Shown: positions 14,584-42,140, counted from the stretch's first letter. The stretch: 64,000 nt of DNA from Dudresnaya verticillata (GCA_977862235.1 OZ374565.1:2108001-2172000), one strand, 5' to 3'. Numbers and translations: made by a program. The notes: generated by a model from the letters alone, not told the origin.

Positions 14584-14708
14584 CACCGTCACGGTTGGAA
14601 GAAACAGCCGTCGAAATCCGCTACGGTAGGAATTCGGCTGTACCGACAACCCGTTACGGAATATTGGATAGACAAGCAAGAACAACCGTTGTGTTCCGTT
14701 AAGGTATC

Positions 14709-20200: not shown

Positions 20201-21508
20201 ATGAAACTTTTCCCCGCTAGCGGACCTTTGGAGTTTGTCGCTATCGAAATTCTCGGGCCACTTGCAAAGACAAAACGGGGTTATGTCTACGTCTTGGTAA
20301 TTACCGATCGGTTCTCTAAGCTGACGCGCTGTATCCCGTTACGGACAACAACAGCCGTTGTGGTGGCTAACCCCTTTCTGGACTTTTGGGTGTACGTCTA
20401 CGGCGCACCCCAATTTGACCTAACCGATAACGGACCGCAATTTACTGCTAAGTTCTTCGACGCGGTGTGTTCCTTACTAGGAGTCAGGCACCTGCTAACC
20501 GCTGCCTACCATCCGCAGACAAATGGGCAAGCTGAGCAATTTAATAAGACAATCGCCCAACGTTTGCGCCATTACGTTGAGGATCATCACTCCGATTGGG
20601 ATTTGTACCTGCAACCGTTGACATATGCGTACAACATGCAGGTACACCGTATTACGGAAACAACGCCATTTGATTTGGTGCTGACACGCCACCCATCGGA
20701 CATTGTTGTACGAGGGGCTCCTGTCGAGCATCAAGAAACCGTTACGGAAGGGCGTATGACCCCGGTGCTACAGAAGCGGAGCACCATGCGCCGTTTACGG
20801 TACGCGCTCCAGACAGCGCGCACGAAGCAGACAGTGGCTCAGCAAAAAGCCAAGGCACTGTTTGACCGTAAGGTGCGCTTTAGGCCCATAATCCGAAGCG
20901 GAGATCAAGTCTATGTCGACCGGCCGCCCCATAACTTGCGGCCGGCCGAACGCCGTGAGCGGGACCGATTGGAAGGCAAACCGGACGATGTGGGCGAGGT
21001 GGCTCAGGAAATGAAGAAACTCCTTCCGAGAGTCACGGGGCCTTATGAAGTGGAATCCACAACGGAACATGTCGTTACAATCCGCAAGGAAGGGGTATTG
21101 ATCCCCGTAAGTATCGATCGCATGACGAAGGTTCCGATCGGAGTTGCGGTTCAGCCGGTACCCTTAACAGTGCCGTCTGTCACGCCATCAACCGTCTACA
21201 GAGAAGTAGTGCCACATCCAGAAGGTACTACAGTAGTACCTCCTTCTGAAGGTACTACTCCCTCCGCGACGGAGCCACTGCAAGCCGATACGGAATATGT
21301 GATCGACAAGATTGTTGGTCACCGCGACGAACCTACTGGGATGACATACAAAGTCCGCTGGTATGGTTACCCTCCGGATCAGGACACTTTTGAGCCCGCG
21401 GAGGAGTTACCGCAGAATTTGATCTACCGATATTGGAAGCAAAGGAAAAAGACATCCGCTAAGGGTAAGCCACGGCGACGTGCTAATCCAACACGTCACT
21501 CACCGTAA
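17233..21508 (+). pseudogene. pol: Family A Pol (protease, RT, RNase H, integrase, chromodomain), disrupted
   Basis: LDSGA; RFCVDYRRLN, YLDD; TDAC, EKECLA; AYHPQTNG; EYVIDKIVGHR..YKVRWYGY..DTFEP. Frameshift ~18058; stops at 19178 and 20081. Confidence 0.95.
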
Positions 21509-21608
21509 CGGACAGTTGGAGTGCTGGGGTGTGAGAACACACAATGTTTATCGCAAGCTAAGATCGAGGCATAATGGAAACCGTTAAGGAGATCGTCGAA
21601 CTGTAACT

Positions 21609-23608
21609 CTAAAAGTTACGTCGACACCGCTTCGGAGCAGGGGCAACTGTATCTTCCTCGTTGCTCCCCTGACCCGTTCGTAAGCCGGGTTCCCCACTCG
21701 GATCCGATTGGAATACGCGCTGCGTAGCGTCTCCCAAGACGCGAACCGCACTATCCATGCGCCGACGCTGACGACGGACCACTGCGCGCAGATGAATCAA
21801 CTTCTCCATCAGTCCCTCCGCTAAGGTTAGCACTTCCTGAACGGATCCTGGCAATGGGAAGCGCTGCGGACGGCAAATGCCCCGTAGCACCTGTAACCCA
21901 CTTTCCGTAGCGGCTAAGTGAGCCGGAACCTTAACGGGGGGATCCTCATCTTCTTGAAATTCTACCTTAGGGGAGATCGACGGCTTATCCCTAACCCCGG
22001 CTTCGAGTGAATGTTCCGTTGAGGAGACCACCAATACGGATGGTCCCGAGTCGGGTGAAGGTACGTCCTTCCGCAGCGGTGGACCCGTGTCCTTCTCTGG
22101 CGAGGCGATATCGCTTTTCCGTAACGGTTCAGGACTTGACGCGAGAACCGAGGGCTTGTCTCCAGTTGCCCCAACACTTGGGCGCGTTGCAGCCACTTCC
22201 GATACGGTGATCGACGCCGCATCCCCCGCTGGTGTGGGAGTGGGCGCCAACAGTGGAGCACTTGGCGGGAGCGGTTCAACGGCAGCAGGCACTTGCGTCG
22301 CAGGAGACAGAGCCGCCGGCACAGTATCCGGCGCCACTTCCGTAACGGTCTGCTGCTTTGAGGTCCCCTTCTCGGATGGTGCCGCGGGCTTGGTCACCGC
22401 CATAATCGGCGCAACCACGCCTATGGGCGTTGGAGCCTTATCCGATACGGGAGTAGTGGTCTCACGATCCACATCGCGCAGCGTGGGTGTCGCGACCACC
22501 GGAAGGATTGGAGCGGGTGTCTTCTCGCTACCCGCTGCCATTGAGGCGACGGGCGTTACCTCCTCCTGTTCTTCCAAGAAGGGGTCAGCTTCTTGCTGCC
22601 TCACCGTAACGGAATCGCGTGGGTCGATTGTACGCGAACGCCCCGCTGCCTCCTGACAGATCCCCCAATCTTCAGCTTCGTCCAAACCGTCACAGTACGC
22701 ACCCCTTGGTGCTTGGCGAGGGGCATAGCCCCGATGGGCCTGCACCTCTAAGGCCAACTATTCCGGACGCGGATCTTCTCGATGAAGGAAATATGGCTCA
22801 CCCACTCCGGGCCTAAGCGGGGGCACCGATAGGACACGGTTCTCGTCCAAACTATACGCCAAGAAGCCCGGAGTGCGTTGCCAATCCTGCTCGCCGTGTA
22901 CGGATAAAAGACGCTCAACCCGATGGAGAGGGTACGCCGACCCCGTCACCAAATCGGCTACGCCGACTTGGCGAATTAGGGCGATCACCGTTACGGGAAG
23001 TTGAAAGATACGGCCACAGTCTCCCCCGGGCAGGTCATCCTCATCCCGTGGGAAGCATCGCCAGTCAGCTAACTTGGTGTTATACCGTACTCCGTAATAG
23101 GCCACCTGGAGCGACGAGAAGAGCACCAGCATTACCCATTCCGATCGGAAGATGCGCCACAGTACATCGAGCTGATCTTGATTTGGGGGACGCTCTCCGT
23201 TCGGATGCTTGTGATTCCACTCCCGTTCGGTGAGTAAGTCCGCCGAGAAGTATGCTAAAACGGAAGGCGTGGGGACAGACAACCAACGGGTCACCTCATA
23301 ACGCTCCCACCATGACGGAGCTGTAAGGTACAATTCACGACGCACCCGATACGGAAGATGGAAGAACTCCTTAGTGTTCCACGTATGCAGGATTGGCGAG
23401 CCAACTTGTATTCCGTCACGGGAACGAGTTCGCAAACGGTGTTCCGTCGCGGCATCGTCCTTCCACCCATCGGCATAGCGGAACCAATATATCGATTGGT
23501 CATAGGGGCGGTCGAAGCAAATGAATTGCACTCCGACCGGCGCACCCCGGAGACGTAAACCTTTGGCCAACAGGTGACTCACCTTTGCGGTATATCCTAC
23601 CTCCCCAT
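21609..23608 (-). pseudogene. Family A antisense accessory ORF (unknown Trp/Tyr-rich domain + P/A/T/S-rich linker + basic helical tail), copy 1
   Basis: ORFs 22758-23699 and 21609-22757 are in one frame, split by a TAG that is TGG in copy 2; homologous to the family B antisense ORF. Confidence 0.8.
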
Positions 23609-24510
23609 TGTGGTGCAAGGGGAGGTGAGCCCTTTTTCGCTGAAAGCGGGCAGACCAAATACGTCGACCGACGGAGAAACCGCCACCGGTGCTCACCACC
23701 GCCGTTGGCGCGCGAACACGTCATCGACGGCTCACTGGGGCGCGCGCGCACACTACGCGCCGCGCGCCACGCGGGCACTGTACGGTGATGGGCCGACGTG
23801 GCGCCCCGGGGCACTGTGATACGGATCCAGATGCGATCTGGATCCGGTATCCAGATTGGCTATCTGGATCGCCTGAGCTGTAAGATACGCGCCTGTAAGG
23901 CTGCGGGTGTTCGCATTGCTGGCCCGATCCGGATGGAATCGGGATCGGACAAGTATCGGATTAGATCCAAGGCGCACGCTCTACAGTATGCGCGCGCGCA
24001 CGGCTGTAAGGCACACGCGTCCACGTGTGCGTGTAAGCACCCACACAGGGGGTTGTACGGCAACCGGTCAGGCGCGCGGCTGCATGCGATGGGTGATCTG
24101 TCAGACGCACCTCGGGACGACACGTGTCCCGAGTTCCCGCGCTACGCACACGCACCGCCGCCGCCGCACCGCCGTACTATACTTAGGTAAGCTGTCCCAG
24201 ACGTAACAGTAAACGCCCGGGCAAGCCGGCCTTGGTCCAGACTTCCCCGTTCCGCACGCGCGTATCCTACCGCTGCCTACGGCTCAAGCGTCTACCTCCC
24301 GTGCTTCCACGTCTACCATCGTCCTTGACATGTTCCCTTTCTGTTTCCTTTTCCCTTCCTTTCCGCCTCGGGCGTCTACAGTCCGCCCAAGGCGTGTCCT
24401 TTGCTCTACCAACAAGTCGCCCAAGGCGAGGCTACTCACCGCCAAGGGCGCAGCTACCCACCGAGCCCCGAACTGCTCGGCGGTCTATCGTCTCAGACGT
24501 TTGCACCACA
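23609..24510 (+). repeat. Family B LTR (902 bp), isolated
   Basis: TGTGGTGCAA...TTGCACCACA; reverse complement of 32425-33330 and 44830-45731; flanks CCCAT/CGTTG do not form a TSD. Confidence 0.95.
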
Positions 24511-24952
24511 CGTTGGCGTCATCGGTAACTAACTTCGGGCCCTCCTTCCGTGTCAGCATCCAAGGCCTAGGCCTCTCTTCGCGGTGCGACACCCCAGTGT
24601 CAGGAGTTGGTGCCCGAGTTAGCTTTTCGCCTGCGGCGGTTGTTGTGGCGCTACATAGCGGTTGATCATCGTCGGATGACGTTCTGCCGTGTGCGGCATG
24701 GGTCTGCCTCGTGGCGATTGTGGTCGTGCAGCACGGCGAGCAGCGTCGCGGGTCGCGCGTTCCTTGCAACGTACATACGCATCAGCGGGGACACCAGCCT
24801 TCTCAGCCTCGGTTAGTCCTTCACAGTTGGTAATAACCTTCATGAAGTCGCTCATGCGGAGGAAGCAGTCCGGCGCGATGTGTCTGCCGGCGTAGCATTG
24901 GTGGCATACCAGCTGCCGACGCGCGTCTTGACGGGGCGGACCTCTGTCCTGC
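24511..24952 (-). mobile_element. Family B internal fragment (gag-pol junction)
   Basis: Direct near-copy of ~42032-42474. Confidence 0.92.
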
Positions 24953-25498
24953 CCCTACCATGTAATTAAAATTTGATGGTTTCTGTTCGGCCATTTATTT
25001 TATTCAAACATAGTATCCCGGAATCTTGGTTAAACCGTTAAGTTTTAGCGGGCTATCCCATTGTAGAACTAAACACACAAATTTAGTATAAAAAAGCAAT
25101 GCCGCTTTCTCGCCCCACTACACAGCCTAATTAAAATTCCGAGTACATGTATATTTGGGCAGTAATCACTTTTGTACTTGGGTTTCGTCATTCAACATGC
25201 CGCGCAACCTGAATATGTACGAATGTTTTGAAACGTGAGTTTTTGTCCCGGGACAGGTAATGAGATACACGGGGCAGAAATAGTGCTTCTGAATTGGCTT
25301 AATTGTGGAACCTCGATGGTGGCGAAGGTGAGGCCCCGAATTTGTCGTCGGAAGATACGAAAGACAAAGAGAAGCGGTAAAATAAAAAAAGGAGAACTGA
25401 CCGGGAATGAGTGTAACACAGCCGTACCTAATTTAATCTAAATAGGTCAGGAAAGTTATGTCAGCTGAGTCTCCCTGCTCAGGTTAATTTTCACTGTG

Positions 25499-27253
25499 AT
25501 GAACTCCCTCCAAAAACCCGGCTTTCTTCTCCTGTTCTTTGCGTGGAAAAGCTTCCTATTTACGACATTTGCTTCCTCCGCGGCCATACTTAAGACGAGC
25601 AATGGCCGAGAGATTGCAACATCCATTCTGTCTCGTCACCTTCCCGAGGTAGCACCAACTTCATTCGGACAACACGTCTTCGAGCAAGAACAAAGGCTGG
25701 TTTTTGTATCGAAAGAAGGTCTCCGCATCGATCTATCCGGGGAGCCTGGTGTGTTCAAATCGGTCCATCAACCTGAAACACAACAACGCAGGCACGACGG
25801 AGTCAAGCAGGCGGGCCCAGGTTCTGCCATCCAAGTCCGTCAAATTGGTCAATACACTGTTGTGCATCGACATGATGGCGCAGTTCGTTTCGTCCATGGT
25901 CCTGAACTCAATCTCGTGCCGGTTGATGAGCATACCCACCCTGGTTTGTTTGTGAACAAACGTGCGGTCATTGCTCGTAAACGTGTTGGAAAGAGCAACC
26001 ACTCGACTCGCTCAGCACAGGAAACCGACAAGGACCACAAGCTTGATTCCGCTACCATTCAGAAGAGCCTGATAAGACAGACTGCGAGTAGTCGTGCACG
26101 CCCCTTCGTCACTTGCGATAGAGGCTCGCCGAAACGAGATCTTGAAATCGCGGTTGCCGCCGATTCGGAAGCATGTCAGCTGTACGGAGGAACTCCAGCG
26201 CTTTTGCAGGACAAAATATCGTACTTGCTATCAAAAACGCAGGAGAAATTCGATGCAATTTCATGCTTGACTCTAAAAGTCGTGTTCACAGACCTGTACT
26301 GCGACAAATCCAGCGACGTGTACCAGGCCGGGAGAGATGCGGACAACGAGGAGCCCATAGATTTCTTCTCAAAGCTTTGGGAGAGGGATGCAAGGTATAA
26401 GAGGGTTCGTCGCGACATCGCCCTACTGCTCATCCCTAGGTATCCATCGGACCAGGGATATGCCGGCGTGGCAGTTGGATGGGTATCATGCAATGACAAC
26501 GCATTCTCCTACGCCGAGACAGTGGATGATGTCGAAACGTACTCAACGATTGCTCATGAATTTGGCCACAACTTTGCCCTGGGCCATACAGACACTGGCA
26601 TTATGGCACAAGGTGAGGCAGTCCCGTCCACGCGATTCACCGCAGAGTCCCAACGCTCACTATCGATGTTCCTGCGCTCTGAATATGCGCAATGTATTGC
26701 ACAGCCTGGTGCAACGAGGGTCAAGCGGGGTCCCCGCTGTAGGTCCTCCAAGCAATCTCCAGATTGCATAGAAAAATTCAAAAAGGTAAAGATGATTCGT
26801 GGTTTTTCAGTGAACGGGAAGCGTCGTAACACGAAAGTGGAGATAAAGCTCGTCCGAGGTAATATCAAGGTCAAAGTATCGGCACCCAAGGCAGAAGATA
26901 ATGTCTCCGGGATCGGGCGCGTAACCTATCACATACGGTTCGCCACGGTCATGTTGGAGTACGGTCGAGCCGGTGGAGAAGCTGACGCGGCTCACGATGA
27001 TGAACGGATAGCCACATTGACGTTCAACGAACGCAACCTCATCATCCCGAGCGGGAAGAGCTCTTGCTGCGGCAGAAATATCAACTTGAATGTACAAGTA
27101 CTCATGTACGGCGCTGACAAGGCAGGAAACTTTATCGATCAGTTCTCTAAGTTTCGCTCGCAGAATATGAAGTTTCGCATCCCGTGCTTGAAGTGCGGGA
27201 ATTCGGGAACTCAGTTCATGTCAGGTACCAGAAAATGTCCAATCTGCAAGTAA
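25499..27253 (+). CDS. Secreted zinc metalloprotease, metzincin M12B/reprolysin-like, with Cys-rich basic C-terminal domain
   Basis: Hydrophobic N-terminal signal; LEIAVAAD; HEFGHNFALGH followed by Met-turn TGIMA; uninterrupted 584 aa from the ATG. Confidence 0.85.
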   Translation: MNSLQKPGFLLLFFAWKSFLFTTFASSAAILKTSNGREIATSILSRHLPEVAPTSFGQHVFEQEQRLVFVSKEGLRIDLSGEPGVFKSVHQPETQQRRHDGVKQAGPGSAIQVRQIGQYTVVHRHDGAVRFVHGPELNLVPVDEHTHPGLFVNKRAVIARKRVGKSNHSTRSAQETDKDHKLDSATIQKSLIRQTASSRARPFVTCDRGSPKRDLEIAVAADSEACQLYGGTPALLQDKISYLLSKTQEKFDAISCLTLKVVFTDLYCDKSSDVYQAGRDADNEEPIDFFSKLWERDARYKRVRRDIALLLIPRYPSDQGYAGVAVGWVSCNDNAFSYAETVDDVETYSTIAHEFGHNFALGHTDTGIMAQGEAVPSTRFTAESQRSLSMFLRSEYAQCIAQPGATRVKRGPRCRSSKQSPDCIEKFKKVKMIRGFSVNGKRRNTKVEIKLVRGNIKVKVSAPKAEDNVSGIGRVTYHIRFATVMLEYGRAGGEADAAHDDERIATLTFNERNLIIPSGKSSCCGRNINLNVQVLMYGADKAGNFIDQFSKFRSQNMKFRIPCLKCGNSGTQFMSGTRKCPICK

Positions 27254-27326
27254 GTCTCTTTATGAAGTCATGAATACATCGACTGCATCTCTACTTTACC
27301 GCGTGCGGCATCGATGCCAGCGATAT

Positions 27327-27580
27327 CCCTAGTACGATTTGTGTTCCCTTTTGGGAACACAAGTTCGATTTCTGCAGTTTTGCACGAGAAAAAACGACCA
27401 ACTTTGCAGGCCTCGCGCAGAAAGATTTTTTGAATTTTACTTCATACTTTATGCAACGCTAGAGGGGCGTTTTCTCTTGACTGTAGAAAAAATATTTATG
27501 CTTCGCGATTTTTTATAACCTAGTAAGATGCAATATAAACTTGTGAGCCCTTTTGGGAACACAAATATTGAGTACTAGGG
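27327..27580. mobile_element. MITE (254 bp) with CCCTAGTAC TIRs and ATAT target duplication, piggyBac-like
   Basis: ATAT|CCCTAGTAC...GTACTAGGG|ATAT; subterminal hairpin TTGTGTTCCC-TTTT-GGGAACACAA near both ends. Confidence 0.85.
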
Positions 27581-27627
27581 ATATACACATTCAAATTTAC
27601 CCAAGTCCTCATCGACTATTCAATTTT

Positions 27628-27704
27628 AAAGCCAACGAAATTTTTCGTTGGCTTTACAATTGATAATTAATTTAATCATGCCAACGAAATTTTTTCGTTG
27701 GCAT
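27628..27704. repeat. Two tandem palindromes GCCAACGAAA-T(n)-TTTCGTTGGC
   Basis: Copies at ~27631 and ~27680 in AT-rich DNA. Confidence 0.9.
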
Positions 27705-28066
27705 AATTAAATTATTGAAATTGCCATTAAAAATAGATGTATAATTTACTATAATCATTTGGTTATTATTTGATAGTCGAGATATGCTTCTTATTAATAA
27801 TCCCAGTTGTATTAAACAATAAAATGTTTAATTGTTATACTATTAACAAGTCGCACCGCCTTCGGCGGGGGCGGCGCTGCGCGCCGCTAGACCGCGCCTT
27901 CGGCGCGGGACGGCACTGAGTGCTGGAATAATAGTCCCCGCGCCGAAGGCACGCGCGGGGTATACGGCGGTCGCGCGCGCACAAAAAAAGGACCAAATTA
28001 AGAAATCAGGCGCACAGCAAAGGTGTCGGCTGTAAGGAGCACCATCCCGCCAATCAATGGTAAGCT

Positions 28067-28067
<1 letters not shown>

Positions 28068-28111
<44 letters not shown>
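28068..28111. repeat. (TGC)14 microsatellite
   Basis: Perfect trinucleotide run. Confidence 0.95.
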
Positions 28112-28267
28112 ATTTTTTCATTGGCGCTGCGGCCGTGTATTTTAGATATAATTTCGGATGCGTAGAAACTATTGTGGCGCCAAGTGGATTTGTTGGCGCA
28201 TCGATATAGAATTTTGTTTATTTTTCGAGACCTGGCCGGGCTAATACTACCATTTGGGCGGTCATAC

Positions 28268-29351
28268 CCCTACAAATTCTTACTATAAGGTAAACATTAA
28301 AATTTTTAATGTTAATAGTAAAAACTTTAATGTTAATAGTATTAAAATATTAAGTAAAACGGGTAAAATCTAGGTTTAATTAAAATTAAAATATTAATTA
28401 TTATTATTAAAATTATTTGGGTGATTTTGCGTTTTAGGGGGTGACAGGGTCCGGCGTTGCGGCAAATGGGGGGTGAAAGTGGATTTATTGCGGGAGATGG
28501 GGTCCGAATGGTAACAGGTTGTTGAAAATGGGGGCGACCTGTGCGAAAGTTTGAGTTATGGCGGGGCGAAACTTGAAGTGTCACCCTGCATCTGGTTGAG
28601 AAAAACCAAATGTCGAATAAACAGAGGCATTTTCACCTATGTAAAACAGCAATTCCGGGAATGTGTCGCCCCTTGAAAAGTGCAAGACGCCAAGTACCCT
28701 CTGATTCGAAGGCTACTCTGGTCTGTTTTGAGGATAAGCGTGTGCATCTGGCGAAGAAAGAGAATCTGCAAATTCCAAAGGCTTTGCCGCCACGGCGTGG
28801 ACGTCCGGTGAGAAATGCCGGAAAGCGCAAGAAGAATTGGTACAAGAGAGGTCCCGCAACCAAGAAGAAGGGCGTGTACTCTTGCTCAATATGCCGTCTG
28901 AAGGATCACACTGTGAAGGACTGTCCTCTCAAGCAGCTGTATGGGGATACCGCGGAGTAGTGACCGTAAAGTAACCTAATTCACCCCCCATTCAGTACAA
29001 AAAGTTGCCTTGTCGCCCCGCGCCTAGTTCAATATTGAGAAATGTCGCCTTTTGTCATCCCTCGATTACTTCAAGTTTTGTCTTTTTCGGGTCAGGGTTC
29101 TCGACGCCACCGTGCGGGTGCTCGTAAAACGAGCTATGTCAGACCTGTTCTTGTTGTAAATTGACGGTTGTCACCCGCCATTTCCAGCAACATATCGTTT
29201 TTCACCCCTCATTTGCCACAAAAGGGGACCCTGTCGCCCCCCTAAATGCAACATTATCTCATTTTAGTATTCAAAATTTGAATTAGTTATATTTCATAAT
29301 TTAATTATGAAAATTTCATTTAATGTAATTAGTAGTAGTGTCAATGTAGTG
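28268..29351 (+). mobile_element. Non-autonomous DNA transposon with long imperfect TIRs and a zinc-knuckle transposase tail (Mutator-like); ends approximate
   Basis: 28425-28480 is inverted relative to 29199-29255 (TTTAGGGGGTGACAGGGTCC / GGACCCTGTCGCCCCCCTAAA); the internal ORF 28610-28960 has PPRRGRP..RKK..CSICRLKDHTVKDC. Confidence 0.65.
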
Positions 29352-32300
29352 TGCTCCTGCACGGTCATCACTGCCCGAAGCAGTTCGCGCTGCGGGTCGG
29401 GCCTCGAGGGCGTCGACGCCCGAGGTTGGCGACCGGCTTGGTCGTCAAACCCGACCCGCTTGTCGCGAGTGAGGAACCGCGGGACGTCTGCCCTTCGGTA
29501 TTCGCCGCGCGGATCTCGACGATCCCCGCGATACTGTCGCGGCTACCCCGCGATACCTTTGCGCGTCGAAGCGCTGCGGGGGACCTCTCGCGTCGAAGCG
29601 TCGGGCCCCACCCCGCTGCGCGTCGAAGCGTCTTGCGGGGTAACCTTGCCTTGGCGCCTGCCGGCATGCGCTCGTCGATGAGCTGCTGCAAGTTGTTGCG
29701 CGCGTGCGGCTGCGTTTCCAGTCTATGGTTGCAGTTCGCATACGCGCAGTACAACTGCTGTTCCTTAGTCAGGAATGGGCACGAGTACATGATGTGTCCA
29801 AGTTCTCGGCAGAACCAGCAGATGTACCACCCCTGTCGATCAGGGGTGACAGCGCGGGCCATTGCCTCTTGCGCCGGTGTGAGCGGAGGGATCCTCCTCG
29901 GCAGGACGGCGTCGATGCGTCCTGATATGTCCAGGGTCTCCTCGGCTTGCGCCGCCCCGGCTTTCGACAGCGCGGGCATGACCATGACGGGTTCGAAACC
30001 ATCGTCATCGGGCGCCACCAACATCGTGCCGTCGAAGGCCGCTTCCCTATCGGGGGTGTGTGGCGCCTCGATAAGCAGTGTGCGGCCGCTTGGCGAACTG
30101 CTTCCCCTACCGCGCCCCGAAACGATGGCCGGCGTCGACGCCTTGGCCATGCGGGCGCGGTAGGTTGTGCCCTCACTGTGGGCGATCCGACGAACGGTAC
30201 TGAAGTTGGTCTGCTCGACCATCGGCATCTGCCTTTCCTTCTCCGCTACTGCGGGTCGGGTGGTCGGAAGCAGACCACGCAGGAACTGGTGCGTCAGGTT
30301 CTCGTCGGATAAACGCCGGCACAGTCATCTGCGTAGCCCTCTAGACGAGAGGCGAACTCGAGTTCTGACTCGGCGTCCCGCTGCCGGGCGGTGGTCAGTC
30401 GGTCGTGCGCGTCGGCGATCACGTCGTCGGTGACGAACCTCTCGACGAGGGTGTTGACCACCGAGGCCCAGCACGGGGGGGTGCCGCGACTAGTCGTCCG
30501 GACCCCCGAGAAAAGGTGACTCGAATACACCTGGGAGGCCGTTCCGTCTAGGAACCAGGACACCACTCGCGCTGCTGCGCCTTCCGACAGGCCGATGCCG
30601 TTGAAGGCTTGGCGTAGCTGTCTAAGCACGCCAAGCAAGCGGATGGGCTCCTTGCCGTCGTAGCGATCTAGCCGCGGCATGAGAGCCTTCATCCTGCTGA
30701 CAATCTTGGCCGCGTTGCCATCGCAGACTTGCTGCTGATTGTCCCGCTGTCCTATGTCATCTAGACGATAGGAGCGGTAATCGATCGCCTTTGCGAATTC
30801 GGGGACCAAGGTGCTCAGCGGCTCGACGCCCGGCACTAATGGCCCCCAGTGCCAGTAGGCCGACACGGGACCTTTGTGTGGTGGGGGCTAGACGCCCCTC
30901 CAACTCCGCGCCCGTCGAGGGCGCGTTCCAGTAGCTTGGGGTCGACCCCGTAGAAGGGGTCGTCATCTCTTGTAGGGCGAGGGGACCCTTGCCCACTCCT
31001 AGGCGGAGAGGCCGGTGGAGAAAAGGGGTTTCGCTGAGCACGACGCTCAGCGAGGAGGGCTTTGGCCAGTTCGCGAACCGGATCCGCTTGAGACGGCGAT
31101 CGCAGAGGACGGCTCCGCACCGGCGACGGGCTAGGCGCCCGTCGGTCATACCGCGCCGGTGCGTGCTCAATCAACTCAACGCGTTGGCGTAGCTCGTCGA
31201 GGAGCGCTTGAGTTCGGGTTAATCCTTCCTCGACGGAGGCGAGAGTTCCGCGTCAAAGCGACTCCAGGTCACGTTGACCTTGTGCCCGCGCGTCTGCGAC
31301 TGAGGCCATGAAGGTGTCGTACACTTCCGAAAGTGAGTCCATCGTCTCCTCGTAGAGTAGCTGGAGGTCGGTCGCAGAGACCGTTGTCCCTCCTAGGGCC
31401 TTGGCTATAGCCGCCCTGCGCTCGATGCGCGGTTCATCTAGGGGAGCTCCTGAGACGCCGACGTTACTCAGCAAGGAAGTGCGTCGACCGCCAACTTCAC
31501 CTGCCGCGGCGTCTGCCGAACCGGCAGCGGCCGAAGTAGGTAGCGGCGGCATTCTTGGCCTCGATCGCGTCGACGCGAGAGGTGATAGGGTCTTCTGCTA
31601 CTTCTAGGTCGGGAGACCAGTGTGGCATAGACGTCAGGTCGAACTGACGTCTAGCTGCGCTGGCCGATCAGTCGCACCCAGACCCGTCGAAGGGTGGTAG
31701 CTGTGGTGGTAGAGCGGTGGTGGCGGCCGCGCGCCGTCGACGGTCGCGGATCAACGGCGTCGAAGCCTGAGAGCGCACGGGGCGTACCGTACGCGGGCGG
31801 CAGCGGCCGGATCCCCGCGTCCCCGTCGTGGGGCGGCACGAAGCCGACGGTAGGGAAAGAAAAAGGAAACCCTAGGCGGCTAGGGAAAGAGGGAAGCCGT
31901 AGGGCGAAGGACTGGGAAAGAAGCCCAAAGCAGAAAGGGCAAGCCTGGCGTAGGCTGGCTTGCCTGGTTTACTGAAGCCCAGAGGGGCGACTACTAGATA
32001 TACTACAGGGCCTGCGGCGGCACCAACCCGGGAGGTGCGCCGGCGCGCCCCAACACGCGTCGACGCGTACGGGTAACGGTAACCCGGGGGCGCGCGTAGG
32101 CGAAACGGTCCACACGTACTCAACGGCTCGACGCCGGAGTGCGCGCGCGCGTGTCACGCACTCAACGGCTCTGCGCCGGAGTGCGTGCGCACAGCGCGCA
32201 GGACAGCAGGGCGTTCCACCGCCGCTTACACTAGACGGTGCTGTACACTACAAAACAATAAACGTAGAAATTACATGGGAGTTTCAGTGTCACACGCGTA

Positions 32301-32424
32301 CGCGTGCACACGCGGGCGCCACTGCGCACTTCCTTACAGTTCAGCGGGGCTTCGGCGCCACCGGCTGACAGCGTGCGCACAGCAGTGCACATGTGGCGCA
32401 GCTGGTCTTACAGCTGCGCGTGCG
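29352..32424 (-). mobile_element. Ty3/gypsy family C: partial 5' LTR (31621-32424), PBS and fragmented gag; truncated
   Basis: PBS 31602-31619 next to TGTGG; gag pieces with IDYRSYRL, YDGKEPI and CWFCRELGHIMYSC. Confidence 0.85.
29368..31552 (-). pseudogene. gag: Family C Gag, fragmented
   Basis: ORFs 31253-31552, 30836-31174, 30294-30866 and 29368-30228 are successive pieces. Confidence 0.8.
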
Positions 32425-33330
32425 TGTGGTGCAAACGTCTGAGACGATAGACCGCCGAGCAGTTCGGGGCTCGGTGGGTAGCTGCGCCCTTGGCGGTGAG
32501 TAGCCTCGCCTTGGGCGACTTGTTGGTAGAGCAAAGGACACGCCTTGGGAGGACTGCAGACGCCCGAGGCAGAAAGGAAGGGAAAAGGAAACAGAAAGGG
32601 AACACGTCAAGGACGATGGTAACGTCAAGGACGATGGTAGACGTGGAAGCACGGGAGGTAGACGCTTGAGCCGTAGGCAGCGGTAGGATACGCGCGTGCG
32701 GAACGGGGAAGTCTGGACCAAGGCCGGCTTGCCCGGGTGTTTACAGTTACGTCTGGGACGGCTTACCTAAGAATAGTACGGCGATGCGGCGGCGGCGGTG
32801 CGTGTGCGTAGCGCGGGATATCGGGACATGTGTCGTCCCGAGGCGCGTCTGACAGATCACCCATCGCATGCAGCCGCGCGCCTGCCAAGTTGCCGTACAA
32901 TCCCCTGTTTGGGTGCTTACACGCACACGTGGACGCGTGTGCCTTACAGCCGTGCGCGCGCGCGTACCGTAGAGCATGCGCCTTGGATCTAATCCGATAC
33001 TTGTCCGATCCCGATCCCATCCGGATCGGGACCCGCAGCCTTACAGGCGCGTATCTTACAGCTCAGGCGATCCAGATAGCCAATCTGGATACCGGATCCG
33101 GATCCCATCTGTATCCGTATCACAGTGCCCCGGGGCGCCACGTCGGCCCATCACCGTACAGTGCCCGCGTGGCGCGCGGCGCGCAGTGTGCGCGCGCGCC
33201 CCAGTGAGCCGTCGATGACGTGTTCGCGCGCCAACGGCGGTGGTGAGCGCCGGTGGCGGTTTCTCCGTCGGTCGACGTATTTGGTCTGCCCGCTTTCAGC
33301 GAAAAGGGGCTCACCTCCCCTTGCACCACA
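32425..33330 (-). repeat. Family B 3' LTR (906 bp)
   Basis: 10-bp terminal IR; carries an 18-bp duplication and a 14-bp deletion relative to the 5' LTR; adjacent polypurine tract GGAGGGGG. Confidence 0.95.
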
Positions 33331-33838
33331 CGACCCCCCTCCAAAACGCGAACACTCCCGACCCTCAACCTGCTGCCGTGCGCCCTCCCGTTGCGGTCCT
33401 GCCAACTTCCGCGCCTTGCGAACGAGTCCCCGCGCCTTCGCGTATTGTGTTGGTGCGCCCGCGTGCGCGTTGCGACCTCGGCTGTGCCGTAAGAACTTCG
33501 CTCTTGTTGCGTGGTTGTGTCCGTGCGACTGCGTTGACGCTGCCCCGACATCACCGCCTGTGGCGCATAACGATCTCCGTCGTTGACGTCTATCGTATAT
33601 CCCTCACCGGGGGCGTCGCAACTTAATCGTCATCGACGTTGTTTGCCTTTGGCATCGCCAGTGGCGCAGCAGCTGAACGTCGTTGACGTGGGTTTCTTTT
33701 CCTCGCCTGAGGCGTTACACAGTAATCGTCTTCGACGCACGCTTCTCGAAGCTTTCGCCAGTGGCGCAGAACACGAGTCGTCTTTGACTTTTGTACAGGC
33801 ATCGCCGTTGGCGCTACCATATTCTCATCGTTGACGTC

Positions 33839-36142
33839 ATGCAGATGTTCAATGGCATGCAGGTGGCGGCGCCCTCGGCCGCGCCTGTGTACGCTTCGCC
33901 GGTCGACTTCGTCGGAAAGAACCCTCGCGACCGCGCGCATTTCTTCACGCGGGCCCCCTGGTTTGACCAGGAGGCTTTGCGCGAGGAAGAATTGGTCGCC
34001 CATTACGCTACTAGCGGTTTCTTGCCGGGAGCCTGCCCCTCGGCGTCGTCTGGACGTTGGAATGGAAGTTGCGTTGTGCCGTCCCTGCGGAATGGCTTTG
34101 GGTGCGAGCGGGGCAGTCGCGTGCGGACGTCCACGCGCAGTTCGTCTCAGACGTGTATCGTCGCTTCACGCGTTATCCGGGGTCGACGTTAACGCCGCCC
34201 CTGTTCAATTATGATGCGGGACAATACCGCACAGCCGGCGAAGCCGAGTATGGTGCTCGTCTCGGGACTCTATCGCTCAAACATGTGAGCGTGTCGATTG
34301 AGCCCCGTGTGTTGGGAGAGGCTTACCTATTAGGCGTGCGCTTGAAAGCGGATTTTCGTTACTTGCATCGTACGGGTATGTTCTTTTGGGAGCGTTGTAT
34401 CCGGTGGGAGTGCGAGACGCGTCGCCGAAAGGGCGTATTCGTGCCTTACCAGGACATGCAGGTCGATCGCATTGAGCGTAGTAAGTTACCCTTCTGTTTC
34501 TTGAAGGTGCCGCCTGTAGGGCGCGAGTTTGAGATATGCGAAGGTTTCTCCGTAGAGCTTCCTCCATGTGTCACGTATCTTGGTTCCAAGCTGATGACCG
34601 ACCCGTATTCCAGGTATTGGATCGTGTTTTACACGGAGTGGGTCGCCAATGTGGCGTATGCGTGGTTATGGGAGGTGTATGACACCTTCCGTATGTACCA
34701 CTTACCCCCGCGTGTGGTGGCTCAGCTTGGCGGCCTCGACTTGGTCGAAATATTTGGCGGGTCCCGGAACGCCGAGGAGTTCTGGAACCTGCGCGCGGTG
34801 GCGGATGAGATCGATTGGAACGACCCGGCAATGGTGCCGTATGCGAACAACCGCCGTAAGGCGAACCGTCCGCGATTCGCGATGAGTCGGACTCACTCCG
34901 CCTGTGGCGATTGGATCCATTATAATCCGTGGACTAAGCGTCGTACGAAGAAGAACGTTGCGGAGCGCCATCGCAAAACGGACCGCTTCACCCCGGGTAA
35001 TCACCCGCGTGGTTTGCGTAAGAGCTGCGACTTTGTCGGTGATTTTCCTCCGCATTTGAGTGCCTTAATGGCCGAGAAGGATGCGTTTAACGCCGATGGC
35101 GGACCGGAGAACCCGTCTGGGACGGATATCGCTACGCCTATGGCGGTTGAGTCGACTGCCGAGCCTGCGCCCACATCTTCGTCTTTGCCCGGAGGTGCTG
35201 TCGATGGCGGTGGAGTGCCAGCTGGCCTGCTAGCTGTTGTGCCTCTGGACCTTGCAGCCCCCGTCGCTGACGATGATGGCGATGCCGTTATGGCGACGCC
35301 AATATTGGAGTCGGCTCCGCCGACCGTGACGCCTCAAGGCGAAGTATCAAACGTCGCAGACGGTTCTGGGAGTCCAGCTTCGGTGCCGGTTTGGACCGAA
35401 GAGCAGCACCGCACCGTGCTTGCATTATTGCAGGCGGTAGGCGTCGCTACTAGCGGTCTGAGCGGCTCACCCACTGAGTAGATGAGCCAATCTTTGTCAG
35501 CTACGATCCCACCTCAGGGTGGGCCCGCGCCGAAGTCGACTAGTGTCGTAGGTTCTGCGAAGAAGGACGGTGTGGCGGAGAAGCCTTCGTCGCCTATGGC
35601 GAATGGTCCGGCGTCTAAAGACGTGCGTATGACTGTACCGCCTGCGGCGAGCGAAGCGAATGCCGCTATAGCGTCGTTGACGGCTCCGAAGGGGCTAGGT
35701 GCTCCTGCGTCATTGACGGGTGTCGGATTAACAGCGCCGAAGGCGAGTGAAGAGGCGACGCCAATGAAGGCGGTTTCTGAACTGACGCCAAAGGCGGTCG
35801 AAGAGTCTTTGATTACGCTTAAAGCGGATGGGGCTGTGCCCGCGCCTAAGGCGAACGATAGCTTGAGCTCTGCGCCTGTGGCGGGTGTTATTGCTTCATT
35901 GCCTTTGGCGGATATCGTCGCGACGACGCCAAAGGCGATTGATAAAGTCGCCCCTTTTGCCTGCGGCGCCTGTTGCGACTACTCCGGCAGTTGCGGTGAC
36001 GAGGCCTTTGCGGTCCGACCCGGCTCCTGCCGTGAGTGTACCGCCGACGACGGAGGACGACCTCTACGAAGAGGCGTTACGTGAGTCCGCCGAAGGCGCT
36101 GAGGATGTGCCACCCGATTCGTCTGCGACGAAAGAGTCTTGA
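33839..36142 (+). pseudogene. Family B antisense accessory ORF (unknown domain + A/P/S/T-rich tail), disrupted
   Basis: ORFs 33791-34192, 34057-35481, 35482-36084 and 35885-36142 join through two frameshifts and one TAG; opposite strand to pol. Confidence 0.8.
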
Positions 36143-37418
36143 TGTCGTTTCAGGAACGGATAGCGGACGCGAGGGGCGTATTGTGTTGCCCTTCGGCTCC
36201 CTTTCGGGACCGATGAGCGGGGTATTCCCCTTCGTCTTTGACGATTAATGTAGCTGTAGTGGTCGATCGCTGGGGCGAGGGGTTGTCCCCATTTGTTTTT
36301 AGCCCAGTAAACTTCGGCCATTGTCAGCGTCTTTTCGTGTCGCGTTTCGCGTTGGCCTTAGGGTGTAACCTTTGCTCCTCTTTCGACTTTGCGTCGTGTT
36401 CTTGATTGCCCGCTACCGTAGCGTTGGCGTTTGATGCCTTTAGCCTTGGCCGTGCGTTGCGCTTCGGCTGTGTTTGGCTGGTAGTGTCCACTGTAGTAGC
36501 GTTTTTCTTCGTGTTTCACGTGCGGCGTTGGTGTATTTCCGCTTACTTAGCGTTTTTGTAATGAATGTGTCGCACTGCGCCTTAGGCGTGGTTTATCGGC
36601 GTCCTCAACGAGGGTCGCGAAGGCGGTGAGGTAGGTGTTGACGCCTTAGCGTTGCCGCCCCTTTCGTCTTCGACGTTCCTCCCTGGGGGTAGGGTAGAGT
36701 TGTCGGTCGTGCTCGCGCGACTGCGACCGCGGCGGCCACGGGCAGCGGCGGAGTCGCTGGCGATTTGTTGGCGTGTCGTGCACGGAACCCACAGCAAATG
36801 CGTCTTCAAAAACCTTCCCCCCCTTCGGGGGTGGGTTTGTCGGTGCGCCCCTTCTCCGGCAAGATACGTCGGAGACGTTCGACGGGTGCTTGCGCGCGAG
36901 ACCGTGGCCGGCAGGGTGGCGGTCCCAGGGACTTGGCCGTGGGGCGAGTGCACGTCTCGACGTCGGAGACGGTTGTTGTGCGCTGCCACTTGAGCCTGTC
37001 GTCGCTGGGGCTCGTAGCACCTGATCAGCCACTTGGCATGATTGCGTTCGTCGTGCGTTGACGGCGGGGTGGTGCGCGCTGCCGTGTTTGGAAATTAAAA
37101 TTTGACCAACTACTGCCTCCTATTACCTGAGGGGCGCCGGTGGCGGATCTCGATTTGCGATCTGGATCCACTGTCAACAGCGCACCCATCCAGAGGTTCC
37201 GTATTGGGGCTGCTGCGAGGTGGCGTGCGCGAGGCTGTCTATGACGCAACGACTTGCGTCCGCGTTCGTCCATGGTGTGCACACGTGTTTGGCGCTGTCG
37301 CTCTGGCGACCGCGTCCACAGGCTATGGGTTGCGCTTCCGCGCCTTTGGCGATCGTAGGTCGAACAATCGGTCTCGATCGTCCGTCCATTCGCTTCCAGC
37401 GGTATTTCAAGATTAGGG

Positions 37419-40400
37419 TTAGCCGCGCTCCGCGTCGTCGACGTTTGGCGGTAGCTGCGTACGTTTTCGACGGTGGTATCGTGTGACGTGGGATCGCGGA
37501 AAACTGTAGACTGGCTCCAAGGTGTTCGCTGAAGCGGGGTATCCAAACCACTTGACGCGGTAGAGGATCTCATCATCATCCGCGTACGCGTGCGACTCGA
37601 TGCGTTCAATCACGTATTATTTTCCGCTCACAGCATTCGGCTTGGACGTGGGCCTGTCCAGCGCCTTTGGCGGTTTGTCTCGTTGCGTGATGGGCGTCTG
37701 TTCCGGTTCGGCCAAGCGTACTCAACGAGTTGATCGCCGAAGGCGTTGGCCTTGGGCCTCGGACGCTCGATCAGCGGCCAGTGGGTTGTTGCGTCTTGAG
37801 ACGATTTCATCGCTTGCAGCGCCTTGCTTCGTGCTTGCACGGTTAACGTCTTCGTTATCGGACGCGCTTTCAGCTGAGTCATTGTTCTCATTCGGCGGTG
37901 CCGTAGCGACGTGTTCCAAACGGGTGCGAACCCCTGGGGTACTGTCGTCGTTGGAGACGGATTGCGAAGCGCGGTCGTCGGGATCGGCGGCGAAGGGCGA
38001 AAGCTCTGCCAACCCACGACTGCGTGACGCTGCGATCGTACGCTCTTGCGGATCTCTCGCACTATGCGAAGTGTCTGCGTCCTCTTCCGGGTCCGCTGGC
38101 GACGTGCTTGGGGTAGTCATCCCTTCGTCGTGTGACGTGGGGGCGACTGTTCCCTGCTCCTCAGGCGGGCCTGGTGGTACGACGATTGGAGGGGCCGCCT
38201 GACCCGGTGGGGTCGGCGCCCAGACCACGCGGTCTCGGGACAAACGTTCCCGCTCATCCCGTCCCTTGTCGACGGTTACTGTCTCGTTATCAACGTGAGT
38301 TACCCAGTATGGTCCGTCCGCCACTGGTGCCAGCTTATGCTTACGCTCTGCGCGATCCGTGATCCCGCGTCGGGCGAAGTATTCCTTACGTACGAATACG
38401 AAGTCGCCTATGGCGATTGCTTCCTTCTATTTCCTTAATCTGGTATCGAAGTTTCGTTTGTAACGTGCTTGAGTTTTCTCCAACGACGCTTTAGCGGCTC
38501 CCATCAGTGCGGCCAGCCAGGTTCGCCACTTGGTGTAGTATTGCCCCGCGGTGGGTACACTTTCGAGCGACGGTTCCGCTTCGAGCGACAATAGCCGTGG
38601 TGGCTTAGACAGCACCAATTCAAACGGAGCGAGATGCGTAGACGAATGCAACTGGATGTTGTATGCGAACGTCAAGGCATCCGTGAACAGGTCCCAGTCT
38701 CTCGGATGATCCCCGACGTAGTGACGCAGCGAGGCCAGGATAGTTCGATTGAATCGTTCTACCTGGCCATTTCATTGCGGATGGTACGTCGTGGTGAAGA
38801 GATTCTCCACTCCCAAAAGACGGCAGATATCCTGAAACAGCTTAGCCACAAACTGTGTTCCGTTGTCGGACAACAATGTCTTGGGAGGACCGTACCCGAA
38901 GACCCAATTTCGTACAAACGCCTTAGCGATTTCCAATGCCGCAATACTACGCAGTGGGACCGTCCGGACCAGCTTCGAAAAGCGGTCCACAATGACGAGT
39001 AGGAACTTGTTTCCTCGCTTCGTGCGTATGAGTTCGCCCAGGATGTCGATCGATACGAATTCGAGAGGCTCGGTTGCCGGGAACAACTTCAATTACTTGG
39101 TGTTCTTTCGCAGCAATACGCGATTCTTAGCGCAGGTTACGCAGTTGCGGACGGTCGCATAGCAGTCCACTGGCATCGATGGCCAATAGTATTTGCGTCG
39201 AAGCGTATGATACAACTTACGCCCCCCTGGGTGCCCTGCCAACTTGGCGTGGTGCCGGAGGTGGAGTAAGCGAGCGCGTAACGCGCAGGGTACGACCACT
39301 TGCGGACGGACTTCCACTGTTCGGACCAACAGGCCCTGTTCATCCGTTGCGAACGGTAAGATGATCCCGTCATCCAGACGTTTTCTGATATCGTTACAAT
39401 ATTTGTCATCGCCTTGGGCGTGTACCAACTCTTCATGCGTCACTTGACGAAGGAGTACCACACTCATCCACCGGTGGCGTGTTGTTGATCAACACTTGGT
39501 CGAACTCTTCGAACTCTCGTTCGGCGAAGTCGACCTCGCCTTCGGCGTCTGACAGATCTTCTTGTGACGTTTGATGGCCGTCTTCGACGTAGCTTCCGTG
39601 ATAGCACGGTATGTCATCGTCAATGGGCTCGACGGTTTCTCCTTTCGTCTGTAGACGCGAAAGGGCATCTGCCTGAGTATTCAGGTACCCCTTTTTGTAA
39701 TTCACGACAAAGTCGAACTCGGAAAGGCGAAGATGCCACCGCATTAACCGTCCAGAGGGGTCGCTGATTTCCATCAGCCACCTCAACGACGAATGGTCCG
39801 TATGGACTGTGAACGACTCCATCTGGAGGTAAGGTCGCAGCGTCATGACGGACCATACTACTGCGAGGCACTCCTTTTCGGAGACCGAGTAGTTACGCTC
39901 TGGAACGGTGAGCGAGCGGGACCAGAAGCCGAGTGGCTTACGCTCCCCGTCGGGTTGCGTTTGAAAGAGAGCGCAGCCGACATGATACTCGCTTGCGTCA
40001 CAATCGACAGAATAGGGGAGACCCTGCTGTGGTAGCGCCAGTATAGGCGGATGAGTCACGGCCTCGACGAGCGTACTGAACGCTTTGGCTTGTGTATCAT
40101 CAAACGGTCGTAACCGGGAGTCCTGTTCCTTCCTCAGCAACTTGTTGAGGGGGGCAGCGACATGCGCGTATCGCGAGGCGAACCGTCTGTAGACGTTACA
40201 AAGACCGAGGAAACTCCGTAGCTCCTTCTGATCCCGTGGATGCTTGGCTTCGCGTAGCGCGGCAGTGACAGTTCGGTCAACTTCTAACCGTCCTGGACGA
40301 TTGACGTGTCCTAAGTAGTTGACGGTCGCGGTGAAGAAGTCACACTTGGTCAACTTCAGAGTCACCCCGGCGCGGTGCAATGTCGAAAGGATCTCGTCAA

Positions 40401-42140
40401 CATGACGGAAGTGACTGTCGATGTCGCTGGAGAAGATTATTACGTCATCGAGGTAGACGAGGCACGAACGCCACTTGTAACCAGCGAGCAGTATGTCCAA
40501 CGTTCTTTGAAACGTAGCGGGTGCGTTCGTGAGACCGAATTTCATACGCTTATAGCGGAACAGTCCGGCGTGGCACGTGAACGCAGTCTTTTCGCGGTCT
40601 CGCGGATTGATCGGCACTTGCCAGTACCCACTGTTACAGTCTAGGGTGGTGAAGACGTTTGCTTCCCCTAGACTGTCGATGCATTCGTCGATACGCGGCA
40701 GCGGGTACGTGTCCCGTACGGTTACTGCGTTTAAACGACGGTAGTCTACGCAAAAGCGGAGGGTCCCGTCCTTCTTGAGGGCGAAGACCACTGGTGACGC
40801 CCACGGCGATTGTGCGGGTTCGATAACCCCTTGACGCAGCATACGGTCCACTTCCGCTTGAGTGAGTTGTCTATGCTTCGGCCCCGCTAGGTAGGGCGGG
40901 GACGATATCGGTCTAGAGCCGGGAAGCAAGTCGATGTAGTGCTCCGTGGTTGAGATTTCTCCCAACGACCTGTCCCACATAGACGAAAACTTGCGCAACA
41001 TCTCCTTAAGCCGGCCTTGATGCTCGGCGGGGAGATTTCCCAGGTCTAAATCGTCTACTGACGGAGGTTTGGCAGTGGTTGCCTCGATAGACTTCGTGAA
41101 AGTATCCGGCTGTGCCGCAGTGTTATCGTTCGTTTGAAAACGGAAATCTTGGTTTACCTTCTCTTCCTCGGCCTGTTCCTCTGTGAGGCCCAAAACATCG
41201 GCTAGACTTACGTGACTGGGGAACACTGCTGTCGGATGTGGTAGCGCCGTCGCGACGACTTGGCCCTTGGTCAGCGCCTGCGGGCGGGGAGAGAAGTTGG
41301 CAACCAGAATGCGAAACGCTTTTAGCGGCTCCACTTGAGCAATCCCGTTCGTAACGGCCAGACCTTGTTTGTCGTATAGCGTTCCGAACGGTTGAATTGT
41401 GATGATGCCGGCGCGCTCGGTGGTCACCGATACCCATTGCTGCGCCTTAGGCGGGATGACCGCGCGCTCGGCGACTCGGGTCTTGGGTGACGTCCTCCCT
41501 TCGGCCTTGCCATATTCCTGTTCCGTTGGTAACGGAGGATACGACGGTGGTCGGCGCAGCGGGCGGCGCGTTATAGGGACACGAGTCCCGTCATCCAATT
41601 CAACCTCGCGACTTCGCGGATATATTACTTCGACGAAGCGGTCGCAAAAGTCGCAGCCGAGTATAACCGGCGCAGCGAGTCGTTCACAAACGATCAGTTC
41701 CAACTTGACGACTCTCCGTCCTAGACGAACTACCAGGTCGATGGTGCCTCTTGTCTGGATCGCCTTATTGTTGGCGTCGGCTATGACGGGGAGGCTCTTT
41801 ACCACGATGCGCGATCGCGCTTCCAGCGGAATGTCGTCAATGCGAATGAAATTCGGACCAGCCCCCGTGTCGAGGACAGTGAGTTTACGTGCCAAGGTAC
41901 TAACGGTTGCGCCCAAATCGGCGTACACCTTATAGTTCCTCTTGGCCATTACGAACAACTGCCCTCGCGCCCGGGGGGGCTGGTACCTTCGCCATGGGCG
42001 TTTTAATGACGTCTGCGACGACTCTATCCGCCCGTTGGCGTCATCGGAAACTAACGTCGGGCCCTCCTTCCGTGTCAGCACCCGAGGCCTAGGCCTCTCG
42101 TCGTGGTGCGACACCCCAGTGTCAGGAGTTGGTGCCCGAG
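37419..42140 (-). pseudogene. pol: Family B Pol (protease, RT, RNase H, integrase, chromodomain), disrupted
   Basis: LDTGA; YLDD; DCDAS, EKECLA; GHPG..C..C; TYHPQ; GPY; VIERIESH..YRVKWFGY..TLEP chromodomain (37419-37613); several stops and frameshifts. Confidence 0.93.

Follow-up and report, generated by a model that had tools for sequence, protein, structure and literature searches.

What does a long open reading frame (ORF) running opposite to gag-pol do for a long terminal repeat (LTR) retrotransposon, and what could its product act on? The question is raised by a stretch of 64,000 nucleotides from Dudresnaya verticillata (GCA_977862235.1 OZ374565.1:2108001-2172000), hereafter the window, which is a nest of dead transposons with four Ty3/Gypsy families, called A, B, C and D. 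Family A is present in two plus-strand copies, A1 (13873-23608) and A2 (45732-54145). Family B has one minus-strand copy with both LTRs (32426-45731) and a third LTR at 23609. A sequence-only reading had proposed that A and B, as two chromovirus families, carry a conserved antisense gene with an unrecognised domain. This gene is almost certainly real and conserved. Its carriers are each densely sown with a short word of their own, and the encoded protein may be the reader of that word.

Both carriers are indeed chromovirus-type elements. They were assigned to the chromodomain Ty3/Gypsy group by domain order, LTRs and primer-binding site (PBS): each has the order protease, reverse transcriptase (RT), RNase H, integrase (PR-RT-RH-IN), a C-terminal chromodomain, LTRs and a PBS. 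Pfam identified RVT_1, RT_RNaseH, rve and Chromo in A, and RT, RNase H and Chromo (37434-37616, minus strand, E 3.8e-7) in B. The RTs of A and B are 57% identical. The named sources among the best 120 RT matches were Agarophyton chilense (2), Palmaria palmata (1), a frog protein at 43% and a bacterial metagenome-assembled genome (1). In B, the antisense ORF lies between the chromodomain and the 3' LTR, opposite to gag-pol, which is the position of the antisense additional ORFs named aORF-3R. In A, it likewise lies downstream of the chromodomain and opposite to gag-pol, and the 3' LTR is absent from the window for both copies. A profile hidden Markov model (HMM) made of 105 natural homologues and excluding the window's own copies matches the window only at the three long frames already pointed out downstream of pol: 34015-35019 on the plus strand, and 53861-52968 and 23615-22734 on the minus strand (E 5e-72 to 1e-58).

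The two frames share a domain of about 320 amino acids, 22% identical between A and B in the core and followed by a low-complexity tail. The A and B peptides quoted in the sequence-only reading are present in the window. Its pairing of EGRHGATL with EAEYGARL was mistaken: the former belongs to one arm of the palindrome 53881-53933 and is read in a different frame from the core, and the partner of GEAEYGARL is GEVGYTAKV of A. Aligned with BLOSUM62, the A1 and B cores score 76, which none of 1000 shuffles reaches (mean 36, maximum 66). With BLOSUM45, 12 of 1000 shuffles reach the A1/B score, so that the pair alone is only moderate evidence. Together with the low pairwise identity and a ratio of non-synonymous to synonymous changes (pN/pS) near 1 between the dead copies, this marginal result is what could be said for the idea of chance ORFs in GC-rich DNA with a coincidental likeness. 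The clade profiles, built without window rows, settle the homology as they cross-score well above shuffles: the A-clade HMM gives B 61.8 bits and the B-clade HMM gives A1 56.1 bits, while the best of 1,000 shuffled controls stays at or below 8.9. The opposite strands score near zero, and the N-terminal antisense piece of B obtains 28 bits on the B-clade HMM. Comparison of the A and B profiles with hhalign yielded a probability of 99.7 (E 2e-26), with some circularity, a joint A+B profile having been used to collect the homologues. Conserved blocks span both clades. Chance ORFs are scarcely credible and were rejected on these cross-scores, the matches of the natural-homologue HMM and the homologues described below; the silent opposite strand and a confident fold argue in the same direction.

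Searching a 50%-clustered protein library with a three-row profile yielded 149 representatives at E <= 0.001, of which 24 reach <= 1e-10; 90 of the 149 are nearer to A and 59 nearer to B. In a quick version of the tree (88 of 112 rows, short cores dropped), they form four well-separated clades with a median pairwise core identity of 23%. Near-invariant positions of the core are D, R, E, Y, R, P, Y and E, and one block reads D-x-x-x-x-R-x-x-x-E-x-x-Y-x-x-x-L. Such wide conservation at low identity, with near-invariant residues, points to selection on this frame. Gracilariopsis chorda and Gracilaria changii were the named sources among 30 clusters looked up; together with the named RT relatives, they make a florideophyte red alga the likely host. 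The G. chorda cluster has four members and five accessions on separate contigs, which fits a mobile gene, and one homologue stems from a Trinity transcriptome assembly of G. changii, where it is thus transcribed, the strand being unstated. A B-type homologue (P0009) and a close RT (P0233) each come from a 21,947-bp ENA contig, a size match made by eye among 63 and 120 rows and an indirect hint at the arrangement outside the window. Scans of viral contigs and metagenome contigs for the context of homologues gave no confirmed locus, and word-indexed protein searches missed the family (0 matches in one case, 5 in another). The claim that the gene is lineage-wide can be upheld for the protein, with 149 clusters in four clades; antisense placement was established for A and B in the window only and probably extends to most of the lineage.

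A captured host gene, or an unrelated nested element that came to lie antisense in both families by accident, is very improbable. The ORF is placed and oriented alike in two families that share 57% identity in the RT and 22% in the antisense core, each antisense ORF bears the word of its own element, the gene is multi-copy in G. chorda, and the core belongs to no Pfam family. Even when capture and chance are added together, they remain highly improbable.

The sequence-only reading had described an ORF of about 2.3 kb. All three copies in the window are broken: B has a frame change, probably a second one, and a TAG, A1 is cut at 23609, and A2 has a stop and palindromes and is cut at 54146. The lesions reported as private to each A copy are present. 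The two copies are for the most part not independent, as about 5.6 kb of A1 16846-23608 and A2 46998-53758 are almost identical (93-96% at the edges) and two pol stops are shared. A dN/dS estimate among copies had been suggested. The pN/pS comparison of A1 with A2 gave 0.70 in the core (8 synonymous and 18 non-synonymous changes) and 2.25 in the tail (11 changes), values that carry little information because the A copies are mostly one recent duplicate. In A2, two adjacent perfect palindromes (53881-53933 and 53931-53987) replace conserved codons, which suggests fold-back template switching. Perfect or near-perfect palindromes with arms of 21-36 nt and spacers of 0-3 nt were seen at 53881-53987, 58743-58814 and 27620-27714.

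Intact homologues have about 400 to 1,100 residues, with an N-terminal domain of about 320, a low-complexity linker and often a helical or coiled-coil segment. The N-terminal domain is predicted to be compact and mostly helical, the linker disordered, and the A clade to have a helical or coiled-coil segment. AlphaFold2 folds the natural homologue P0007 with confidence (pLDDT 91.7, pTM 0.90), and for P0002 the pLDDT is 91-98 across most of the core. The proposed structural check thus delivered a confident fold and no structural match. Foldseek searches with the core gave best E values of 1.5 and 2.5 against the PDB and 3.7 against BFVD. In a structure comparison with 48,161 chains (VIA), the B-type model reached at best Z 2.5 (rmsd 5.1, 111 residues aligned) and the A-type model only generic helical-hairpin rows at residues 454-541 (best Z 7.3, rmsd 2.4, 53 aligned); a second comparison returned nothing at Z 2. 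These searches used models of more than 400 residues and databases other than the AlphaFold DB, and they demonstrate neither a new nor a different fold. A PDB sequence search with the B profile had no match at E 10, and the ESM Atlas gave no usable one (Atlas model pLDDT 0.31).

As had been suspected, no described domain was recognised. At E 0.01, Pfam has no family for the core in seven window pieces and 57 homologues, the few matches being coiled-coil or repeat regions. In the same set, neither PF04195 (TRP28) nor DUF1985 or the Plant Mobile Domain (PMD) was matched. The latter two were also absent at E 10 from all 9 families for 55 B-type proteins and from the best 25 of 60 families for 70 A-type proteins. 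The earlier statement that the protein is not env agrees with the antisense orientation and with the rarity of strongly hydrophobic windows: of 75 homologue cores, only 9 contain a 19-residue window with a Kyte-Doolittle value >= 1.8 (median 1.35), no dedicated signal-peptide predictor having been applied.

The C-terminus points to the nucleus. Of 60 long homologues, 14 have the pattern K[KR]x[KR] within 25 residues of the C-terminus, compared with 8 among 674 control windows; by clade, the figures are 9 of 25 (A) and 2 of 27 (B). The A end itself, APKRCRRNF, fits it, and this basic C-terminus of the A clade is a predicted nuclear signal. In both clades, the tails repeatedly show a short helix-loop-helix segment (P0036 residues 457-502; window 35377-35478 on the plus and 21768-21977 on the minus strand), which by eye may resemble HeH/SAP. 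A profile from 16 hand-picked seeds detected it in 4 of 45 other homologues and in no shuffled or reversed sequence; the window copies score poorly, and Pfam reports nothing on the segment. The B stop at 35479 falls inside it, suggesting a lesion and not a natural end.

The words offer the protein a candidate target. They are real and stronger than had been claimed. In A, a stretch of 9,709 bp contains 66 CCG-N3-CGG sites, where 7.5 would be expected (maximum of 16 in 100 simulations). Its narrower form CCGTWACGG occurs 37 times in the window, every time inside an A copy, against 0.56 expected. The orientations are balanced (11 vs 12), and the half-sites degenerate independently (T1 at 44 of 66 sites, A3 at 42 of 66, both at 28, as expected), as in a dimeric DNA site. 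The A word is sequence-fixed, and its arms do not covary.

The B word, CG-XY-N3-Y'X'-CG, is of another kind. Inside the element it occurs 112 times against 9.6 expected, and 25 times in the 49,346 bp outside B. Among 255 CG-N7-CG sites in B, 125 are perfect inverted repeats, against 24.5 expected with independent halves. The combination CGCC/GGCG is seen 37 times and CGTC/GACG 33 times, with a single case of the mixed forms; of the 16 stem classes, 7 are commoner than in any of 100 simulations. Enrichment extends to spacers of 4 and 5, with loop lengths ranking 3 > 4 > 5. Covarying arms with several spacers are the signature of a mini-hairpin. The stems end at exactly four pairs (the next position pairs 56 times, 61.5 expected) and begin only with CG (125 of 255, against at most 9 for other dinucleotides).

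Both words persist above synonymous-codon shuffles in gag, pol and the tails of the antisense ORFs, with 19 vs 2.9 for A gag, 28 vs 5.1 for B gag and 20 vs 3.3 for B pol. Two parts of A stay within the shuffle maximum, namely the antisense core (4 vs 0.8) and RNase H (5 vs 0.9). The words are dispersed in every codon phase of gag and pol and in both orientations, and each is absent from the other family. Families C and D have words of other types. Of the 43 GTC(G/T)A sites in D, 33 have flanks that form a stem of at least 3 pairs with variable sequence, palindromic sites being counted on both strands (5.2 expected, maximum of 14 in 5000); the sense strand is favoured 8 to 2, and the same loop closes no stems in A, B, C or the remainder. 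In C (54146-57800 and 46223-46997), GGCC reaches 17-21 per kb against 2.5-6.5 elsewhere, mostly as YGGCCR and without pairing of the flanks. Neither the A nor the B word is in excess in the long interspersed nuclear element (LINE), Copia, host ORFs or the gag of C and D. The words are thus a property of this Gypsy lineage. The word type changes where the protein clade changes, between A and B.

An element-wide, family-specific and orientation-free word inside coding sequence implies a reader working over the full length of the element and able to distinguish families. The antisense protein is the natural candidate, because it diverges fast, is probably nuclear and changes clade where the word changes. 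It is proposed that the accessory gene of this red-algal chromovirus lineage encodes the reader of its own family's dispersed word. Antisense transcription would start in the 3' LTR or a 508-bp spacer, and the protein would be imported into the nucleus, where it would bind the short palindromic or hairpin-forming word across its own element. Such binding could keep the family active against host silencing, in the manner of the VANC proteins, by an anti-silencing or activating effect. That the protein reads the words is close to an even question, falling slightly short of it, and whether they would be read on DNA or RNA is about balanced or tips a little towards DNA. A lineage-wide self-recognition code, with a family's own CG palindrome or mini-hairpin every 100-150 bases or so, read by an antisense protein of possibly new fold that protects or licenses its family, can be advanced only tentatively. 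Recognition at the DNA level with an anti-silencing or activating effect, which is argued by analogy, is somewhat more doubtful still.

The hairpin signature can be read differently. Packaging or export stem-loops of RNA viruses are many short degenerate hairpins along a genome, and Rev-type proteins of retroviruses are accessory regulators in retroelements. The words might likewise form mini-hairpins on element RNA and act as scattered signals for export or packaging. Their reader would be either the antisense protein, in the manner of Rev, or the Gag nucleocapsid, and each family would thereby take charge of its own genome. The covarying B arms and their loop preference, the D stems with their sense-strand bias, and zinc-knuckle-like C/H motifs seen by eye in the Gag proteins are in favour, and reviews have likened antisense ORFs to retroviral Rev and Tat (PMC7264820). 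In contrast, G-U pairs are not enriched on either strand of B (12 vs 7.4 and 9 vs 11.4), there is no clear strand bias, and B loops are barely richer in A than their flanks (66% vs 61% A of A+T). A 301-nt piece of the B RT folds no better than shuffles (z 0.56), and the A word is orientation-symmetric without covariation. A and B thus have neither the strand nor the G-U signature of such RNA systems, nor an env. This account seems unlikely.

Equally unlikely is a real accessory gene whose job has nothing to do with the words, such as nuclear import, particle chaperoning, an enzyme step or cell-to-cell movement, the words arising from another reader or from family-specific templated mutation. 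An active site could be built from the near-invariant acidic, Arg and Tyr residues, the basic charge of the core is weak, and the fold-back palindromes with 0-3 nt spacers indicate that templated inversion does occur in the window. Nevertheless, stems of exactly four pairs that start only with CG fit selection better than mutation.

Several points weigh against the proposed word-reading protein. Protein and word were found together in only two families, so that the pairing may be a coincidence within one lineage; C and D have words, but their 3' parts are missing from the window. The main weakness lies in this basis of two families together with the unlike nature of their words: the covariation in B speaks for a hairpin more than for a fixed double-stranded site, the A word is sequence-fixed, and one fold would have to serve both. 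The core is only mildly basic, with a median charge of +2 (51 of 75 positive), and the A1/A2 pN/pS cannot be told from neutral decay. Differences between copies show no clear excess of CpG transitions (49 of 192, the pairs being partly non-independent; CpG sites make up 19-26% of positions), so methylation silencing is not evident. According to the available text, VANC motifs are non-coding tandem repeats in a single orientation (PMC5735166), whereas the words here are dispersed through coding sequence. Word binding, expression and localisation of the antisense protein are deduced from sequence.

The elements around the gene are listed in Table 1. The PBS TGGTCTCCCGACC is common to all four Gypsy families (14566, 31607, 44815, 54932), its primer being perhaps tRNA-Tyr. 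LTRs of the Gypsy families end in ACA, and those of A, B and C begin with TGTGGTG. The flanks of the B 5' and 3' LTRs (32418-45736) show no target-site duplication. With the near-identity of the A copies and the B LTR joined to an inverted B piece, the rearranged nest may reflect recombination, conversion or mis-assembly. Elsewhere in the window, an intact-looking M12B reprolysin-like metallopeptidase ORF with a hydrophobic N-terminus (25469-27253, plus strand) is probably a host gene, and an ORF with DUF7869 (E 1e-44) plus upstream ORFs (59011-62495, minus strand) probably represent a DNA transposon that carries accessory genes. A non-LTR RT element (8241-10475) is bracketed by a 286-bp inverted repeat pair (4913-5197 and 10450-10735; region 4913-10735), and a minus-strand Copia-order element (10740-14100) was the target of the A1 insertion. 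Both the A and the B word are absent from these two elements.

Table 1 Features of the window bearing on the antisense gene, its carriers and their words
Feature	Position	Strand	Remarks
A1 5' LTR	13873..14560	+	TGTGGTG start, CACCACA end; ends approximate; sits inside Copia-order element
A word, 66 CCG-N3-CGG sites	13900..23608	both orientations	23 of 66 are CCGTWACGG
A1 PBS	14566-14578	+	just 3' of 5' LTR
A1 gag and pol (PR-RT-RH-IN-chromodomain)	14703..21508	+	dead; in-frame stops 19178-19180 and 20081-20083, both also in A2
A1 antisense ORF, C-terminal part	21609..22757	-	P/A/S/T-rich linker; predicted helical hairpin or coiled coil (from a homologue's structure model); basic end APKRCRRNF
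A1 antisense ORF, conserved core	22734..23608	-	profile positions 79-310; stop 22758-22760; 5' part replaced by B LTR
B LTR (23609-24510) and inverted 443-bp piece of B internal sequence	23609..24953	+	interrupts A1
D fragment: part LTR, PBS 31607-31619, broken gag	28900..32422	-	GTC(G/T)A-loop hairpins, variable stem
B word, 125 perfect CG-XY-N3-Y'X'-CG sites	32423..44829		7-22 per kb across LTR, coding and non-coding sequence
B 3' LTR	32426..33330	-	purine tract immediately inside
B antisense ORF, conserved core	33839..35050	+	first ATG 33839; frame change near 34015-34030
B antisense ORF, tail	35051..36142	+	low complexity; TAG 35479-35481; probable further frame change near 35960-36084
B gag, pol, chromodomain	37434..44738	-	broken
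B 5' LTR	44830..45731	-	PBS 44815-44827
A2, gag fragment to antisense ORF	45732..54145	+	holds C solo LTR 46223-46997 (5-bp duplication CTCGG)
A2 antisense ORF	51760..54145	-	core 53861-52968; frameshift near 52960; stop near 53833; palindromes 53881-53987; truncated by C LTR at 54146
C LTR, PBS 54932-54944, gag	54146..57600	+	GGCC 17 per kb

The function of antisense extra ORFs in LTR retrotransposons is an open matter, and most have no candidate substrate. Here, a well-folding conserved domain meets a precise candidate target in each family, which turns the matter into a direct question of binding. Should binding be true, which is rather uncertain, protein and word would make up a self-recognition system without precedent among LTR retrotransposons. 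It might then also be the first VANC-like protein-and-motif system in such an element, independently evolved and using hairpin shape, although we hold this with the same reserve. Should the protein turn out not to read the words, there would still be a covarying 11-nt hairpin, present about 125 times in a 12-kb retroelement and laid over coding sequence, to explain. Moreover, the new domain is a ready annotation marker for elements that at present appear as hypothetical genes. Much of the genome growth in red seaweeds is due to LTR elements, and transposon silencing in these algae is described as unexplored in the available text of a recent study (10.1101/2025.02.11.637652).

Antisense extra ORFs as such are already known. 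Additional antisense ORFs between pol and the 3' LTR (aORF-3R or eORF-3'R) include maize Grande gene23, rice RIRE2, Retand TRP28 (PF04195), PvRetro13 and Botrytis Boty, and their function is given as unknown, with a nuclear role suspected, in the accessible parts of the literature (PMC7264820; PMC11963269). The A and B ORFs share their position and orientation. In contrast to TRP28, a Transposase_28 (PF04195) protein of a non-chromovirus lineage, they are carried by elements with chromodomains, and their core lacks PF04195. Furthermore, the known hosts are plants and Botrytis, whereas A and B reside in a likely red-algal one. The extra ORFs of plants are very heterogeneous, with 314 groups in a survey whose available text does not mention red algae (PMC6317226), while the A/B type is one domain across a whole lineage. 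No account of this ORF or of these words in red algae was found in the literature; Repbase, the Chondrus and G. chorda genome papers and their supplements were outside the search and may hold earlier annotation.

Transposon accessory genes have been reported from red algae, namely PAG1-3 of Plavaka and Mutator elements, for which the text at hand suspects an action on chromatin (10.1101/2025.02.11.637652). These belong to DNA transposons, and PAG2 and PAG3 have recognisable enzyme domains. The closest parallel is VANC of the VANDAL elements, Mutator-like DNA transposons, and the related PMD. As far as the available texts go, the motif to which VANC21 binds is 9 bases long and confined in its enrichment to the transposon family that encodes VANC21 (PMC5735166), and these systems likewise combine an element-encoded accessory protein, having a conserved domain, a variable region and a coiled coil, with family-specific short motifs (PMC5735166; PMC13547354; 10.1101/2024.09.27.615353). 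The A and B words share with VANC motifs their enrichment in the cognate element and differ in forming no same-orientation tandem arrays in non-coding DNA. No sequence link through DUF1985 or PMD was seen, so that the A/B protein is not a VANC member by sequence and the likeness is one of analogy. In place of a DNA transposon, the carrier here is an LTR retrotransposon, and its words are CG-containing inverted repeats inside coding sequence, with covarying stems in B and D.

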